A stretch of DNA of 62,438 nt, the filler included, from an uncultured bacterium (GTDB lineage Bacteria; Hinthialibacterota; Hinthialibacteria; Hinthialibacterales; Hinthialibacteraceae), in assembly GCA_964449065.1 (NCBI GenBank). It is 17 parts of 17 records of this genome, joined end to end, with 100 filler letters (N's around TTAATTAATTAA, not from the genome) between each part and the next. Parts side by side here need not be neighbours in the genome. Positions count along the whole stretch, not along the records: positions 48,083 to 51,603 come from CAYVAZ010000449.1; positions 51,704 to 55,223 come from CAYVAZ010000450.1; 15 more parts are not named here. The stretch is one strand, 5' to 3'. The notes under the pieces are model-generated. The model was not told where the DNA came from. It did no database searches and was given only the letters and a program-made list of their open reading frames with translations. Positions 37,948 to 51,916 of this stretch are shown in pieces. The translations under genes were made by a program, and so were the position numbers. Position 1 is the first letter of the stretch; each line of letters starts with the position of its first letter.

Positions 37948-39483
37948 ATGATTAGAATGGACGAAATCAATAAAATAAGAAAGGCTTTTTTTGTAAAAGG
38001 AGAAAGCTGCAACAGTATTGCCAAGAAATTAAACCGTTCTTGGGATACTGTGAATCGCATTGTCAAAATGCCTCGCGAGGAATTGGAAAATCGGGGCAAG
38101 CGACCGAACAGAAAGGCTCCCGTGAAAACTCCTACAGTAGTAAGAGCTATTCGGGAACTTTTAGAAGAAGAAATTGAAAAAAGAGTTAAGAAGAAACAAA
38201 AATATACAGCTGCAACAATTTATAAGAAACTGACTGAGCAAGGAATCTATCATGGCTCTGTGAGAAGCATGCAAGACATAGTAAAGTCTTTGAGAGAAGA
38301 ATTAAAACAAACCACGCAAAAATCTTTTTTGCCATTGGTATTTTCCCTCGGTTCTGCTTTACAGATAGACCATGGTGAAGTAGATGTTATTATCAACGAA
38401 GACAGGTATCGGGCATATTTGTTTGTGGCGAGCGTACCTGGACAGGCTATTCGCTATACTCAAGTCTTTGCATGTAAGTCTCTCGAGGCGTGGGGAGAAT
38501 TTCACGAAAGGGCATTTTGCTTCTTTGGTGGTGTTTTCCCTCAAGTCATTTATGACAACGATACTGTACTTGTAAAAAAGGTATTGGGCGACGAAAGGCG
38601 GCAAACAAGTTTTTCCGTTGGTATGGAAGAGCATTACGGATTTCATAGTCACTTTTGCAACTTGGCAGCAGGTAACGAAAAAGGTGCTGTAGAAAACGGA
38701 GTCGGTTTCTGTAGACGCAATTTCTTACCCGGCCTCCCTCGCTTTGCAAGCTGGGATGACCTTAATACTTTTTTGCATTCACTATCTAAAAAAGATATTG
38801 AGGAAAATATTCATTACAAAACTCAAGAAAAGATACTCGATATATTTACAAAATTGACACCTCTTTTAAGTCCTTTATCCAAAAGTAAAAAATGGAGAAA
38901 GTGGCTCAATTGTCGTGTTGATTGTTGTCAACTAATTACAGCAGATCATCACCAATATTCCGTTCCAGAATCATTTGTAGGAACCTATTTAAGGGTAGCT
39001 TTGTCAGTAGATCAAGTTGAGATTTTTGACAAACATGAGCTTATCACATCTCATGTGAGGCAATATGGCAAAGCAGACTCTCTACAGTTGGAACACTACT
39101 TAAATCAGCTTTTACGCAAGCCAAATGCATTTTGGCATTGCAAAGCTGTATATCAGCATAAGTTTGAGTCAATCCTAATGCAGATTTGGCAACGCCTTCG
39201 AGAAAAACACGACAATAAAGAAGCGAATAGACAATTTGTTGCCATTTTGATGCTGAAACGAAAGTTTTCTGAAAAACAAATTAGAGAAGCAATAGAATTA
39301 GCATTAGAATATGGCGCTATTGAATATGCAGCAGTAAAAAATATTATCTATCAGCTGGAGATGCCATGTAATTATTTTAAACAAGATAATATTAAGAAAT
39401 TATTGCCGACATCACTCAGTGTATCAACATGGCAATTTGATCTCTCTTTATACGCAGAGCTTAGTCAGGAGGTGTTTTTATGA
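37948..39483 (+). CDS. istA: IS21 transposase
   Basis: QIDHG, YDND, EKGAVENGVG, YSVP. Confidence 0.93.
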   Translation: MIRMDEINKIRKAFFVKGESCNSIAKKLNRSWDTVNRIVKMPREELENRGKRPNRKAPVKTPTVVRAIRELLEEEIEKRVKKKQKYTAATIYKKLTEQGIYHGSVRSMQDIVKSLREELKQTTQKSFLPLVFSLGSALQIDHGEVDVIINEDRYRAYLFVASVPGQAIRYTQVFACKSLEAWGEFHERAFCFFGGVFPQVIYDNDTVLVKKVLGDERRQTSFSVGMEEHYGFHSHFCNLAAGNEKGAVENGVGFCRRNFLPGLPRFASWDDLNTFLHSLSKKDIEENIHYKTQEKILDIFTKLTPLLSPLSKSKKWRKWLNCRVDCCQLITADHHQYSVPESFVGTYLRVALSVDQVEIFDKHELITSHVRQYGKADSLQLEHYLNQLLRKPNAFWHCKAVYQHKFESILMQIWQRLREKHDNKEANRQFVAILMLKRKFSEKQIREAIELALEYGAIEYAAVKNIIYQLEMPCNYFKQDNIKKLLPTSLSVSTWQFDLSLYAELSQEVFL

Positions 39484-40247
39484 TCAATGATCTTTTAACC
39501 ACATTAAAAATGAATGGTGCGCTTGAAGCATTGCCGAGTCTAGAAAATGTTAAGGACAAGACACAATTTCTTGTTGGCCTCTTACAAGCTGAAATAGAAT
39601 ACAGGGCTATTCGTGCGGCCAAACGACGGTTGTCTCGGGCAAAATTCCCAGTAGAAAAAGAGTGGTGTGATATTGACCCCTCATTGAATCCGGAAATTGA
39701 TTTTTCAAAAATTATGTCATTGGGGAAGGGAGATTTCATTGCTCAAAACAAGAACCTATGCTTAATGGGTCAACAAGGCACTGGCAAAACGCATAGTTTG
39801 ATAGCGCTAGGAAGGCAGCTTTGTCGTAGAGGAGTTACAGTAAGATTTCATACTGCCTGCGAACTAGTCAACCATCTAGAGGAAGCTAAGGCCAATCATA
39901 GCTTGAGTAAGCTAATGCAGACACTTGTTAAACCTCAATTGTTGATAATAGATGAGCTAGGCTTTGTTCCTTTTTCTGAAAATGGCGCCCGACTTCTTTT
40001 TGATGTCTTTGCTAGTCGTTACGAAAGAGGTCCTATTGCTGTGAGTACTAACTTGTCATTTGACAAGTGGGTTCAGATCTTTGGGACAGCAGAGTTGACA
40101 GCGGCTTTAGTAGACCGATTTACTCATAGATGTCTTATTTTAAGTTATAAGGGGCAGTCAGTTCGTCTAGTTGAAGCAAAGAAAAGCCTAGCTAAAACTA
40201 GAAAAAAACGACTTGAAAGAAAGCAGGAAGATGAGGCATATGTATAA
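39480..40247 (+). CDS. istB: IS21 helper ATPase
   Basis: GQQGTGKT, LIIDELG, STNLSF, AALVDRFTH. Confidence 0.95.
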   Translation: MINDLLTTLKMNGALEALPSLENVKDKTQFLVGLLQAEIEYRAIRAAKRRLSRAKFPVEKEWCDIDPSLNPEIDFSKIMSLGKGDFIAQNKNLCLMGQQGTGKTHSLIALGRQLCRRGVTVRFHTACELVNHLEEAKANHSLSKLMQTLVKPQLLIIDELGFVPFSENGARLLFDVFASRYERGPIAVSTNLSFDKWVQIFGTAELTAALVDRFTHRCLILSYKGQSVRLVEAKKSLAKTRKKRLERKQEDEAYV

Positions 40248-43926: not shown

Positions 43927-44215
43927 CTAGTCTCAGTACGCAACCGGGGAGCATCGGCTTCCAGTCGGTGCGCCAATCCGTCCAACTCAATGTAATTATA
44001 CTTAAGAGAAGTTGTCTAAACAATGTTTTTTAGGAGGGCGAGGCTCCCGCCGAGCCGGAAGCACGCTTTTCTTCCCCGATAATCCAAAATAACATCGGTA
44101 TAAAACCCGATGAACAGAAAATTCCCATGTTGTTATTCGCGTGAATTTACGTGTCCTCGCGGTTAAAAAAACATGAAACATTACAGATTTAAAATTTTTT
44201 GTGTACGGAGAGCAG
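43927..44215. mobile_element. 289-bp MITE nested in a family A copy (43823-44360)
   Basis: 9-bp TSD CCCTTTGGG (43918-43926, 44216-44224); imperfect TIR CTAGTCTCAGTACGCAA / TTGTGTACGGAGAGCAG. Confidence 0.8.
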
Positions 44216-44693
44216 CCCTTTGGGAGAAGATAAGAGATGAGGGCGATGAGAGCGATTGCTCCCTATGACGCAGTAGCGTAATTAGAGGTTTATTCCTCCC
44301 GAACCCTCACCCCGGCCCTCTCCCGGTGGGCGAGGGCGATAGATTCAGCGTACATATAGANNNNNNNNNNNNNNNNNNNNNNNNNNNNNNNNNNNNNNNN
44401 NNNNTTAATTAATTAANNNNNNNNNNNNNNNNNNNNNNNNNNNNNNNNNNNNNNNNNNNNCCTCCCAAAGGTGGGAGGGGTTAGGGGAGGGTTTGAAGCA
44501 CTGAGCGTTTAACCCCCACCTAGCCTCCCCCATTGCATTGGGGGAGGAATGAGAAAATCTATTCGATTTTTTAGAAATGCACTTCATATCGCTGACCTGT
44601 TACCGAAACTGGAATTAATTGTAATAAAGAAACACCAAAACAGCAGGGAAAGAATGAAGATTGAACAATCCCCTTATCTATTAAGATTGCTTA

Positions 44694-47776: not shown

Positions 47777-48082
47777 GGATATTCTCCTTGCTTTATTATG
47801 CTGTTATTAACTCACGTTACGCACTACATTATGATATGCCCGTTTTTCTCATCGTTCGCTGAATCTATCGCCCTCGCCCACCGGGAGAGGGACGGGGTGA
47901 GGGTTCGGGAGGAATATACCTCTCATCACGCTACTGCGTCATAGGGAGCAATCGCTCTCATCGCCCTCATCTCTTATCTTCTNNNNNNNNNNNNNNNNNN
48001 NNNNNNNNNNNNNNNNNNNNNNNNNNTTAATTAATTAANNNNNNNNNNNNNNNNNNNNNNNNNNNNNNNNNNNNNNNNNNNN

Positions 48083-48209
48083 GGGAGAGTGACGGTCAAT
48101 GAGGCGAGGGTTCTGGCGCGAGGCCTGCGTCAGCAGGGCTCGTGACAGGTCCCGAAGACCGAACCAAACACCGCTGCTATCCCCGTCGCTCAGCAGCCGC
48201 TTGTTCGGT
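48083..48209 (-). repeat. Integron attC site 1 (truncated by contig end)
   Basis: Minus strand ACCGAAC-AAGCG-GCTGCTGAGCG...; near-identical to attC2/4/5. Confidence 0.85.
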
Positions 48210-48213
48210 CTTG

Positions 48214-48507
48214 TCAGGTGTTCTTCTCCCATGAACCCGGATCACGGCTCTGATGGAAAACCGAAACTATCAGGATCTCCTTCTGATCGGTGATCGTGTA
48301 GATCAATGAGTAGGGAAACCTGCGGAGGTTGCAGTGACGGAAATTATCCGAAATCTGCCCCCATGCCTCCGGAAATCTGAGAAGCCGCTCGATTGCGGCG
48401 TCAACTTCATCAATGAAATCGGCACCCAACCCGGACACCCGCTCTTCGTAAAACTCCGCAGCCCCAGCAAGTTCTTCGAGTGCAGGAGTGAGGAAACGGT
48501 AAGTCAT
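48214..48507 (-). CDS. ParE/RelE toxin (gene cassette)
   Basis: PALEELAGAAEFYE, LRRFPYSLIY, VFHQSRDP. Confidence 0.92.
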   Translation of the reverse strand: MTYRFLTPALEELAGAAEFYEERVSGLGADFIDEVDAAIERLLRFPEAWGQISDNFRHCNLRRFPYSLIYTITDQKEILIVSVFHQSRDPGSWEKNT

Positions 48508-48728
48508 CTGGCAAAACGCGACCTTAGCTGGGCCATGGCCTCCGGTCCATCAACAGCCGTGACCCTCCCTTCCCGGAACGCTTGCATCCGAGCCTCCGAC
48601 TCCCGAATCCAAACCTCGCGAATCACGGCCGGCGTCGTTGAGAGGCTTTCGAGCAAACGATCTGCAAGCACAGCACGCTCGCTGTCAGTCAGTTGCAGAG
48701 CCTCCTTCGCGATGATTGCTGGATCCAT
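48504..48728 (-). CDS. Addiction-module antitoxin (TIGR02574-like)
   Basis: ALQLTDSERAVLADRLLESL...WIRESEAR. Confidence 0.88.
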   Translation of the reverse strand: MDPAIIAKEALQLTDSERAVLADRLLESLSTTPAVIREVWIRESEARMQAFREGRVTAVDGPEAMAQLRSRFAR

Positions 48729-48789
48729 TGTGGCAATTGTAGACGATCGAGTTGGAGAGTGCAAACGTCATCCGCGGACCTCTCTTTTG

Positions 48790-48939
48790 ACCGAACGTCC
48801 AGGCTCTGGGGCGGGGAGAGTGACGATCAATGAGGCAAGGGTTCTGGCGCGAGGCCTGCCCCGCAGGGCTCGTGACAGGTCCCGAAGACCGAACCAAACA
48901 CCGCCGCTATCCCCGTCGCCCAGCAGCCGCTTGTTCGTT
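48790..48939 (-). repeat. Integron attC site 2 (150 bp)
   Basis: Minus strand AACGAAC...CAGAGC-CTGGAC-GTTCGGT. Confidence 0.9.
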
Positions 48940-49386
48940 TTTAGTTTTCCGATTCCGCTCGTTTCACCATCCGCCACAGAGATTTCCGGTATTTCCGGCC
49001 TTCCTCAACAAGCAATTGGTCGAACCCTGCTTCGCAAATTCTCTCTGCCCCGGCAGGCCAAGGAGTGTCCCCGGGGATCAACCGCCTACCCACTTCACAG
49101 GCGGAGAGACGAATTCCTCCACTTCGCAGTCTGTGAGCGTTCTCGGCGATCAGCCGCCCTCTCCCATCGCACGCCGAGAGAAGGAATCCTTTGCTTGACA
49201 GTCTCTGCGCGTTCCCGGCGCTCAGCCGCCCGCTCCCGTCGCAGGCCAAATGAAATATACCAGAACTTGACTCCCTCTGCGCTTGACCCATGGGCATCTG
49301 GCCTCGAACTCCGATGGGAATGGAGGCATCCCCCCGTTTCCGCCACCATGTCAGTCTACGAGCGCTCGGTCTGTCTTTCTTTGGAA

Positions 49387-49531
49387 AACGAACGACCCAG
49401 GTGTGGCACGCCGGGGAAAGCGTTCGACCGGCAAGGAGACTGGCGCGAGACGTGCTCAGCACGGGGAGTGACAGGCTCCGCAGTCCGGCCAACCTCCGCT
49501 ATACGGCGTTGCCACCACCGATTTGTTAGGC
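49387..49531 (-). repeat. Integron attC site 3 (145 bp, divergent member)
   Basis: Minus strand GCCTAAC-AAATC-GGTGGTGGCA...TGCCACACC-TGGGTC-GTTCGTT; contains the stop codon of 49526-50041. Confidence 0.88.
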
Positions 49532-50041
49532 AGTTACCTTCTCGAATTGAGCCTCGGGCATCGCGAGCAACTCTCGAACCTCCTCCTTAATCCTGTCAAA
49601 CGCGGACCAAATTAGTGCGATTGGCACAAGATAGATGTACCATCCACCAGAATTCACAAGAAGAGCGGTGCGGGCCACGTAGTTCAAATCCTTCATGCAC
49701 TCCTGCACATCGGGGTCAATTACAGCACATAGAGCTTCCCGCCTGCGTTGAATCTGCTTCTGTAGAACCGGATTCTTCTCTATCTTTGCGTCAATGGAAA
49801 CGAGGCGGATCAAGTCGGTCTTGTGGAGCATTCTGAGTCCATTGTTGATCGAGTCTTGGAGGTAGGCAAACACCTCGTCAGAGCATACATCTGAATCTTC
49901 GTGCTTTAGGTTTCGAAGTCGGTCGCGGATCTTGAACAAGTCGAAGCGAAGCTTCAGCCGGAGCGATGGAGCCAGAATGCCTTCGTAAATGAAGTGGTAA
50001 AAAACAATAATTATAAGAAAGTAGAGGAGATATTCAGTCAT
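49526..50041 (-). CDS. Uncharacterised membrane protein (cassette gene 2)
   Basis: 171 aa, N- and C-terminal hydrophobic segments; stop lies in attC3 GCCTAAC. Confidence 0.85.
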   Translation of the reverse strand: MTEYLLYFLIIIVFYHFIYEGILAPSLRLKLRFDLFKIRDRLRNLKHEDSDVCSDEVFAYLQDSINNGLRMLHKTDLIRLVSIDAKIEKNPVLQKQIQRRREALCAVIDPDVQECMKDLNYVARTALLVNSGGWYIYLVPIALIWSAFDRIKEEVRELLAMPEAQFEKVTA

Positions 50042-50409
50042 TTCGTAGATCCTTTGATTTTCGAACCCATTGATTCCTTTTGGAGTTGGGACTTTTCACG
50101 CCCCATACGATCAAATTCGCCGCTGATTACGGACCGTTGCCATTTTGCGTGAATGAACCACCCGATAGACGAAATAAATCCCAGAAGATAACCCAGAATC
50201 CATCCTTTCTCAATTCCATCGAGTAACCGGAAAGCCAATGTGCCCACCTCGGTTGAAGGCATACGGACCACGATCAGAATGACTATGGCAAACAATCCCA
50301 TCGGCAGGAGCTGACCTTTGGCGATAGCTGCCACAGTAATGTCACGAATTGCGTCCCACATGTTTGTCGGATGACCTTTGGGCTTCGGCTTGCTCTTGTT
50401 ATTCGCCAT
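50038..50409 (-). CDS. Uncharacterised 2-TM protein (cassette gene 1)
   Basis: 123 aa; ATG 15 bp after the GTTAGGC core; ATGA overlap with next gene. Confidence 0.85.
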   Translation of the reverse strand: MANNKSKPKPKGHPTNMWDAIRDITVAAIAKGQLLPMGLFAIVILIVVRMPSTEVGTLAFRLLDGIEKGWILGYLLGFISSIGWFIHAKWQRSVISGEFDRMGREKSQLQKESMGSKIKGSTK

Positions 50410-50424
50410 AAAAGTTTTTCATGT

Positions 50425-50574
50425 GCCTAACGTCCAGGCTCTGGCGCGGGGAGAGTGACGGTCAATGAGGCGAGGGTTCTGGCGCGAGGCCTGCGTCAGC
50501 AGGACCCGTGACAGGTCCCGAAGACCGAACCAACACGGCCGCTATCCCCGTCGCTCAGCAGCCGCTTGTTCGGC
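50425..50574 (-). repeat. Integron attC site 4 (150 bp)
   Basis: Minus strand GCCGAAC-AAGCG-GCTGCTGAGCGACGGGGA...TCCCCGCGCCAGAGC-CTGGAC-GTTAGGC. Confidence 0.92.
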
Positions 50575-50592
50575 TTAGCTTCTAGAGTTTAG

Positions 50593-50844
50593 CTACGCTG
50601 CACTCTCTTCCTTGATTCGCTCGGCCAACCACATCTTCATGACTGACTGTCGAGTGACCCCCACCCTCTTTGCCTCACGGTCCAGCGACTCGATCATCCA
50701 TGCCGGGAGGTCTAAATTGACTCTCCTTTGTTCCAGATTCGGTCTGCGAGCCTTCTCCCAATCTAGAAACTCGGAGATGTCTTCCCCCTCATCAAACCTC
50801 CGATCAAGCTCTTCAGCCGTTATGGTATCTGCATCTTTCTTCAT
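50593..50844 (-). CDS. BrnA/CopG-type antitoxin (cassette)
   Basis: AEELDRRFDEGEDI, RVNLDLPAWMIESLDREAKRVGVTRQS. Confidence 0.9.
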   Translation of the reverse strand: MKKDADTITAEELDRRFDEGEDISEFLDWEKARRPNLEQRRVNLDLPAWMIESLDREAKRVGVTRQSVMKMWLAERIKEESAA

Positions 50845-51076
50845 CTCGCGCTCTTCTTGTTGAAATAATCCGCACTCTTCCTTCTCGAAGAGTGAAGATG
50901 CATGTCCAGATCTTCCCGCTCCATTCGCCGATCAGGGCAAATCGCTCCTCATCTTCTGAACGGGCACTGACTTCCAGAGCATACTCGTCCTTCCAAAGCT
51001 CCTGGCTTTGGATGAAATCGATCCCGTGCTTCTCACGATTGGCCTGTGACTTCTCGGGATCGAACTCGAACTCCAT
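50813..51076 (-). CDS. BrnT toxin (cassette)
   Basis: FEFDPEKSQANREKHGIDF, RIISTRRA. Confidence 0.92.
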   Translation of the reverse strand: MEFEFDPEKSQANREKHGIDFIQSQELWKDEYALEVSARSEDEERFALIGEWSGKIWTCIFTLREGRVRIISTRRARDEERCRYHNG

Positions 51077-51124
51077 TTCGGTATAAAAATGGAGGGATTT
51101 TCACGCAAAGCAATCTCTTTCTGA

Positions 51125-51275
51125 GCCGAACGTCCAGGCTCTGGCGCGGGGAGGGTGACTCTCAATGAGGCGAGGGTTCTGGCGCGAGACCTGCCTCAGC
51201 AGGGCTCGTGACAGGTCCCGAAGACCGAATCAAACACGGCCGCTATCCCCGTCGCCCAGCAGCCGCTTGTTCGCT
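51125..51275 (-). repeat. Integron attC site 5 (151 bp)
   Basis: Minus strand AGCGAAC...CTGGAC-GTTCGGC. Confidence 0.9.
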
Positions 51276-51916
51276 GTTATTTTGGGTAGGCCTTCCCGAT
51301 CCGGATCGACGGTCCCGAAGGAATGAATCATCATCTCCCCAACTTTCGAAAGTTTTGCATTTCCGTCACTTTGGAAGCTCTAATCTTCAATCCTCTTCGT
51401 GGGGAATGCGGTATCCGCCGAAAACCGGTCCGATCGCCAACGCCGCATTGCAGTCCAAGCAGAAAATATCATTGATCTGATTTTCCTGTTTCTTTCTCAA
51501 TCGATTCAACGTCCGGAAGAACGATCAATTGGGAGACAGCGATTTTCCGTCTGTTTGGAACCCAGTGCGACTTGGGAGCGACAACGCTGCGCAAATGGAT
51601 CTGNNNNNNNNNNNNNNNNNNNNNNNNNNNNNNNNNNNNNNNNNNNNTTAATTAATTAANNNNNNNNNNNNNNNNNNNNNNNNNNNNNNNNNNNNNNNNN
51701 NNNAGTTAGAAAGCGTCCTTCAATCCCCCCTACCTCCCCTTAATCATGGAGAGCAACAAAGGCGAGGTTCCCGCCGCTCGCAAAGCGTGCCTTGGGAGGG
51801 CGAGACTCCCGCCGAGCCGGATGCATGCTTGAATTTCACTTGCAAATAGGATTGTTAAATTAGCGCGGCGATCTGTTTTTGGCAAACGGTTTCTCTCGCA
51901 ATGACAAAAGCTTCGT

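Follow-up and report, generated by a model that had tools for sequence, protein, structure and literature searches.

According to the available text of earlier reports, the attC sites that delimit integron cassettes measure 55/57-141 bp (PMC7370490; PMC5371416), and the first unpaired base of the folded site is 'almost exclusively a G', a G16-to-C change having cost 2.7-fold in the recombination of Vibrio cholerae repeats (VCR) (PMC2727003). Several integrases excised more with C as the first unpaired base, and blaVIM-2 is the one natural case named in the accessible part of that study (PMC3053210). Homogeneous attC sites accompany long arrays (PMC4889954), and Verrucomicrobia integrons are mentioned without detail in what is available of two papers (PMC4889954; PMC8618304). 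As for defence cargo, the 2TM, 1TM and TIR genes of Escherichia phage P2_AC1, tested together, protected E. coli, and the authors proposed in the text at hand that TIR may make a messenger activating the membrane proteins (Rousset et al., 2022; PMC9122126). Integron cassettes with streamlined defence systems have been reported as well, in a work whose main text, as far as available, contains neither '2TM' nor 'TIR' (10.1101/2024.07.02.601686). Here we analysed a window of 62,438 nt, composed of 17 contigs of ~3.5 kb each with N spacers between them, from the bin (G000; 87% complete, 5.2 Mb; GCA_964449065.1) of an uncultured bacterium of the Hinthialibacteraceae. One entire contig, C449 (48083-51603, 3521 bp), is occupied by an integron cassette array, genuine and of a known kind; the contigs next to it in the window are uninformative about it. 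It is a five-cassette piece, likely of an array from a Verrucomicrobiales chromosome and probably misbinned with an unrelated organism.

Cassette boundaries and attC sites

The minus strand of C449 carries all five attC sites (s1 to s5), co-oriented, with s1 cut by the contig end. A first-pass annotation, made from the sequence alone, had described five palindromes at the coordinates listed below and had interpreted them as an integron cassette array on a contig that lacks intI, core and R'' being complementary in every complete cassette. The five palindromes were confirmed, all on the minus strand, and the array itself was borne out by the boundaries, the core/R'' pairs, the covariation and the junctions. 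The core of a cassette is the exact complement of its own R'' in all four contig cassettes, and contigs of two sequencing runs supplied a fifth pair (core GTTCGCT, R'' AGCGAAC), whose core lies 14 nt past the contig end. All cores differ, and random assignment gives the full complement match with a chance of 1/24, or of 1/120 with the fifth pair. The core of a site never complements the R'' of the same site and instead matches the R'' of the next one, as would follow from the insertion of cassettes between others. The features of the contig are as follows.

48083-48209, minus: attC s1; R'' ACCGAAC; without L' and R', which the contig end cuts off
48214-48507, minus: ParE/RelE-family toxin gene, 97 aa (PF05016, E 5.4e-12); its stop lies 4 nt before the s1 R''
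48504-48731, minus: addiction-module antitoxin gene, 75 aa (PF09720, E 5.2e-11)
48736-48765, minus: sigma-70-like promoter candidate before the ParE pair; recognised by consensus alone, with 2 such matches where chance would give 1.6
48790-48939, minus: attC s2, 150 bp; R'' AACGAAC, core GTTCGGT
48940-49392, minus: body of the 597-bp cassette (49392-48796), no recognised gene
49387-49531, minus: attC s3, 145 bp, of the same family but divergent; R'' GCCTAAC, core GTTCGTT
49526-50041, minus: 1TM protein gene, 171 aa (PADLOC 1TM-TIR, E 1.5e-44); stop inside the s3 R'' box
50038-50409, minus: 2TM membrane protein gene, 123 aa (PADLOC 2TM-TIR, E 1.6e-34, near full length)
50425-50574, minus: attC s4, 150 bp; R'' GCCGAAC, core GTTAGGC; recombinogenic fold predicted to be poor in the present context
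50593-50844, minus: BrnA/CopG antitoxin gene, 83 aa (NF047399, E 6.8e-38; PF12441)
50813-51076, minus: BrnT toxin gene, 87 aa (PF04365, E 1.6e-24)
51125-51275, minus: attC s5, 151 bp; R'' AGCGAAC, L'' GCTGCTGG, L' CCAGAGC, core GTTCGGC; C16 and T24 unpaired on the bottom strand
51276-51603, minus: body of the first cassette, with stops in all three minus frames and no recognised gene; core GTTCGCT 14 nt beyond the contig end

Four public runs hold parts of C449, X1-X3 being microbial-mat runs; the evidence consists of assembled contigs, which show neither copy number nor circles and in which uncovered stretches of C449 prove nothing. In X1-X3, contigs switch to sequence absent here just after the core triplet (50429), inside the core (49389, three contigs) and at the edge of R'' (48207/48209, 50572, 51274). 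Other cassettes therefore use the same attC family. At these sites the run contigs add three or more genes upstream and several cassettes downstream to those of C449, and they extend C449 by 14 nt into another attC end. The attC depth was ~10x that of the cassette bodies in X1 and X2, which is a hint only and not a copy number. Run X4 covers just parts of the 2TM and 1TM genes, a small share of the contig, with 95-99% identity, and carries no implication for habitat.

All four complete sites have the R''-5-L''...L'-6-R' layout with the AAC/GTT triplet and a top-strand G at L'' position 4, equivalent to bottom-strand C16, and s2, s4 and s5 carry the usual unpaired T24. Sites s1, s2, s4 and s5 are 92-96% identical, and s3 shares 73% identity with s2 across 71 nt. 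The textbook consensus is not matched: GTTRRRY occurs in one of the four contig cores, C16 in four of four sites, and the lengths of 145-151 bp slightly exceed the published 55-141 bp range. The misfit to GTTRRRY does not exclude these sites from attC, because just 3/65 sites beside Verrucomicrobiales intI genes fit it (see next section). A strict box scanner found three matches, on one strand, in the 3.5 kb of C449 versus 42 scattered in the remaining 5.2 Mb, and a sequence search found no further copies of the repeats in the rest of the bin. Exact patterns were present at 0 loci in genome contigs (30 nt) and at 0 loci in metagenome contigs (25 nt). An Rfam search returned one chance-level match only (E 0.27) and therefore no known RNA family.

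In folding predictions the bottom strands were 6-8 kcal/mol more stable than the top strands, with modest z-scores (s5 -2.7, s4 -2.0, s3 -1.2), and the predicted probability of the recombinogenic fold was 0.82 for s2, 0.25 for s3 and 0.29 for s5. A bottom-strand hairpin with unpaired spacer and bases was predicted for s2, s3 and s5, and weakly for s4. The R/L hairpins for which a bottom-strand folding check had been proposed at the outset are thus predicted, with values that are favourable but not extreme. In the L stem of eight members (the four window sites and four homologues), 7/15 pairs were altered on both sides; 98% of the alignment cells pair, against 27-50% in slid registers, and the covariation score was reached by 0/500 shuffles, with the structure drawn from s5, a choice favouring the result.

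The box architecture, core/R'' complements, L-stem covariation, alternative cassette junctions and lineage site match were observed directly, and established integron biology suggests how such an array would operate. An IntI encoded elsewhere would bind the folded bottom strand of attC via its unpaired bases, C16 (replacing the usual G16) and T24, and would cut that strand between G and TT. Recombination of attC x attC would release a cassette as a circle, to be reinserted at attI. The two toxin-antitoxin cassettes would stabilise the array against loss, and the cassette with the 2TM and 1TM genes would, by homology, act at the membrane against phage.

The BrnT-BrnA cassette measures 700 bp (51130-50431). 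Two of the five cassettes have no recognised gene, and one of these, the 597-bp cassette, matched neither plasmid DNA nor any of 401 Verrucomicrobiales genomes; two 15-nt direct repeats lie inside it, 72 nt apart (49144-49230). A 183-aa minus frame running across sites was treated as spurious and had no Pfam match. A 418-aa plus frame across sites, antisense to the ParE pair, was likewise treated as spurious.

attC style and the origin of the contig

DNA beside IntI genes of two groups was scanned with one purpose-made box-and-fold scanner, mirror and opposite-strand hits being removed; shuffled loci gave 0 and 2 hits. The Verrucomicrobiales set (48 loci) yielded 71 raw hits and 65 unique sites in 19 loci, and the Pseudomonadota set (38 loci) 32 raw hits and 31 sites in 10 loci. 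A top-strand G at L'' position 4 (bottom-strand C16) was found in 59/65 Verrucomicrobiales sites and 8/31 Pseudomonadota sites, 21/31 of the latter having C; by locus, G was in the majority in 15/19 and 2/10, respectively. Cores with C at position 4 (GTTC) were counted in 44/65 versus 1/31 sites, GTTRRRY cores in 3/65 versus 13/31, and the median attC length was 127 bp versus 63 bp. GTTCG cores made up 28/65 of the Verrucomicrobiales sites. An earlier run of the Verrucomicrobiales scan had given G in 61/67 sites and complementary core/R'' in 36/40 adjacent pairs. The odd attC features of C449 are therefore the norm in Verrucomicrobiales and rarer elsewhere, at variance with published descriptions. 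The GTTCG cores, top-strand G and length that the first-pass annotation had singled out as unusual are real, yet they are what is usual beside Verrucomicrobiales integrases. The cores and the G need no new mechanism, because only the AAC/GTT triplet is strictly conserved and G16-to-C cost only 2.7-fold in VCR. No description of the Verrucomicrobiales style was found in the literature searched, supplements, which possibly hold such sites, being outside the search; the attC style of C449 is apparently undescribed.

The style is also seen in L026, an intact intI-attI-cassette unit with a first cassette starting with GTTCGGC, an attC running GCCGAAC...GTTCGAT and the top-strand G at L'' position 4. 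Many Verrucomicrobiales IntI frames are 430-490 aa long, and in L026 (561-2009) ~115 residues precede the VchIntIA-aligned part. Across 53 IntI loci (some sharing a genome, and one belonging to a relative of the bin), the position equivalent to W157 of VchIntIA was R in 38 and H in 8, and that equivalent to W219 was W in 53. An integrase pocket adapted to C16 was considered, and was not seen among the residues checked in these loci. IntI1 likewise has R at the W157-equivalent position (PMC2095811).

A pattern scan of 185,579 species genomes returned nine loci. The sole full-length homologue among them, 90-92% identical, was in a genome titled 'uncultured Akkermansia sp.' (Verrucomicrobiales), and the other eight have only the central hairpin in common with the C449 sites. 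Three further Verrucomicrobiales genomes held members at 73-74% identity, the full-length ones being 146-150 bp; in L029, L037 and L038 the long members sit among ordinary 126-bp attC sites. An IntI over the cut-off was found in 171/401 Verrucomicrobiales genomes, including all four that share the site family. C449 is probably a misbinned Verrucomicrobiales contig, because the full-length homologue, the long subfamily, the frequency of IntI and the L026 unit all belong to that order, and the bin's own organism is a less likely source. A sedentary chromosomal (super)integron, as suggested by the first-pass annotation, and a larger array are likely rather than demonstrated, on the grounds that four sites are 92-96% alike and further cassettes occur in the runs. 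C449 is broken at both ends, with neither intI nor attI seen adjoining the array.

The Akkermansia-titled homologue follows an apparent HicA/HicB pair in reverse orientation, judging from translations. The central hairpin (GTCACG-stem-loop-CGCGCC) also lies inside shorter attC or attC-like sites, ~100 bp where scanned (L013, L016, L017, L018, L019), in records titled Acidobacteriota, Terriglobia, Eisenbacteria and uncultured bacterium, and in 0/65 ordinary Verrucomicrobiales sites. In the 150-bp subfamily, arms of the Verrucomicrobiales type may have been combined with a core of foreign origin.

Several points weigh against the interpretation of C449 as a misbinned Verrucomicrobiales array. 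The long subfamily occurred in 4/401 Verrucomicrobiales genomes (two candidates scored per genome) and in none of 34 other genomes of the bin's class beyond one 22-nt match, and 4/401 versus 0/34 does not discriminate origin; nor does 4/251 versus 0/34 for the BrnT cassette. Composition is merely suggestive and confounded, since C449 (GC 0.544 versus a bin mean of 0.474) ranks 14th of 80 small contigs by distance from the bin. A profile search of the bin, which is 87% complete, found no IntI over the cut-off, C449 is linked to neither intI nor attI, and a second cassette fragment in the bin (C514) means that its own organism might have an unassembled integron. The 14-nt joint in the run contigs fits an upstream attC equally well as an excised circle. 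For s4 the predicted probability of the recombinogenic fold is 0.002. Finally, the Verrucomicrobiales sites are not independent, two loci or arrays supplying 33/65 and kinship adding to this, and the scanner retains a few false hits.

The explanation that survives best beside a Verrucomicrobiales source is an array of the same type resident in the bin's own small-phylum organism, either gained by horizontal transfer or dependent on an intI that the assembly lacks. The C514 fragment speaks for it, as do the full IntI of a family-level relative, G019 (the only one of 35 relatives of the bin to have an IntI over the cut-off), and the finding, in the part available of Ghaly et al. (2021; PMC8352920), that attC sites cluster by environment rather than phylogeny. 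However, the attC sites of G019 are 60-72 bp long with GTTAG cores, the site family is in no relative, and the bin contains further small contigs of deviating composition, whose GC reaches 0.68 (bin mean 0.47). Moreover, four near-identical sites suggest a host that produces such attC sites, and the five related sites found in genomes all belong to one other order. We consider a bin-resident array unlikely.

Still less likely is an orphan, decaying cluster of attC sites lacking an integrase (CALIN), in which the integrase was lost and the cassettes are no longer shuffled in the host. The bin without intI, the two of five cassettes with no recognised gene and the poor fold of s4 would agree with decay, but the core/R'' pairs are all exact, the toxin-antitoxin pairs and the 2TM and 1TM genes are intact, more cassettes occur at the same sites in the run contigs, and all four genomes sharing the family have IntI. 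That the repeats are miniature inverted-repeat transposable element (MITE)-like or repetitive extragenic palindromic (REP)-like palindromes inserted between genes can be dismissed almost entirely. The sites are imperfect palindromes of 92-96% identity, which agrees with it, but they have no further copy in 5.2 Mb, are not flanked by target-site duplications, are all co-oriented at the 3' ends of genes with a geometry identical to attC beside intI, and have cores matching the next site's R'' and not their own, a pattern that already refutes it. Scattered MITE-like copies with target-site duplications, named beforehand as the finding that would speak against an integron, were looked for and none was seen in the bin; the integron interpretation stands.

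Other parts of the bin were also inspected. Contig C514 (L141, 1236-2050) carries a 62-bp attC-like site with L boxes as in the long sites and a core, GTTCTCC, that pairs with the next R'', GGAGAAC; by translation only, it encodes an antitoxin and PIN-like toxin pair, then an apparent group II intron reverse transcriptase start in reverse orientation. Within the window, the contig at 55324-58839 has a GC of 0.63 versus 0.47 for the bin and is among several off-composition small contigs, a sign of contamination. A 129-nt repeat, 96% complementary, occupies the ends of two neighbouring contigs (44225-44353 and 47854-47982), and a shorter repeat occurs at 44030, 44882 and 51792; these repeats are probably dispersed ones of the bin's organism. 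The IstB-like ATPase of an IS21-family element lies at 39480-40247 (from translation only).

The 2TM+1TM cassette

The 2TM+1TM cassette measures 1038 bp (50430-49393), with 2TM as its first gene, and closes at s3 directly after 1TM, whose product is 27% identical to the 1TM of phage P2_AC1. No TIR gene was matched on C449. Since the 2TM and 1TM genes are present but the linked TIR of the 2TM-1TM-TIR system is not, the pair is not classed as a member of that system and is a homologue without a TIR gene. No named family for 2TM or 1TM was found in ESM Atlas or NCBIfam beyond an unsupported automatic DUF2937 label. To judge from the profile matches, the cassette is likely a compact membrane-acting anti-phage module.

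The metagenome held 1TM homologues at 45 loci, of which 43 were examined, one duplicate and one fragment being excluded. An upstream 2TM homologue was found in 38/43, and two of the five misses lack upstream DNA. The P2_AC1 TIR protein matched at 0/45 loci, and Pfam TIR was found in 0/41 neighbouring frames from 23 longer loci (41 of 51 frames were searched; the AC1 control was positive); many of the loci are short, so that a distant or unlinked TIR could escape. A TIR-less 2TM+1TM pair thus appears usual in the metagenome homologues examined. No attC was found beside the 43 loci, save two hits inside the 2TM gene, and the pair is therefore not usually a cassette. Elsewhere in the bin, contig C424 (L140, 2342-3325) has a TIR-domain gene whose product matches the N-terminal portion of the P2_AC1 TIR with 28% identity (E 7e-6); after it come a CinA-like gene and insertion sequence remnants. 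This TIR-domain gene is not in a cassette and is unlinked to C449.

That 2TM+1TM travels without TIR, both on C449 and at the metagenome loci examined, calls into question the proposal that TIR makes a messenger for the membrane proteins, and the cassette poses a clean experimental question.

Comparison with known systems

The array itself is an ordinary integron fragment, and its by-products, the attC style and the TIR-less pair, matter more. An integron-rich order mostly uses C and GTTC, with sites of up to 151 bp, against the textbook G and GTTRRRY. Its sites are natural substrates for asking whether integrases and attC co-evolve by lineage, and the style offers a rule by which orphan cassette contigs can be assigned to Verrucomicrobiales and misbinned ones spotted. 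It is possible, though we would lean against it at present, that Verrucomicrobiales integrons have an order-wide style of C16, GTTC and 125-150 bp that is preferred by their own integrases, forming a large and partly insulated pool of cassettes that standard models call too rarely, and that 2TM+1TM is a stand-alone module for which TIR is optional.

With CALIN, as defined for IntegronFinder (PMC4889954), C449 shares several attC sites on one strand, less than 4 kb apart, and no intI nearby; here, however, the missing intI may merely reflect a 3.5-kb contig broken inside repeats. The idea of an attC style of a lineage's own is shared with the taxon-specific attC models of Ghaly et al. (2021). 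In the accessible portion of that work there are 11 models, including Planctomycetes and Acidobacteria, and 'Verrucomicrob' is absent from the main text, the supplement aside (PMC8352920).

VCR have the same R''-5-L''...L'-6-R' layout, AAC/GTT triplet and unpaired positions 16 and 24, as far as the available text goes (PMC2727003; PMC5371416), and VCR-type sedentary arrays likewise have a long branched terminal structure and carry toxin-antitoxin and defence cassettes (10.1101/2024.07.02.601686, from the part available). The C449 sites differ from them in C as the first unpaired base, in GTTCG rather than GTTRRRY cores and in lengths of 145-151 bp, and the likeness described here is one of features. 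The 2TM-1TM-TIR system of P2_AC1 resembles the cassette in its order of 2TM then 1TM, and both of its PADLOC profiles, for 2TM and 1TM, were matched nearly full length. However, the P2_AC1 system includes a TIR gene, whereas the pair of C449 is without TIR and is packaged alone as an integron cassette.

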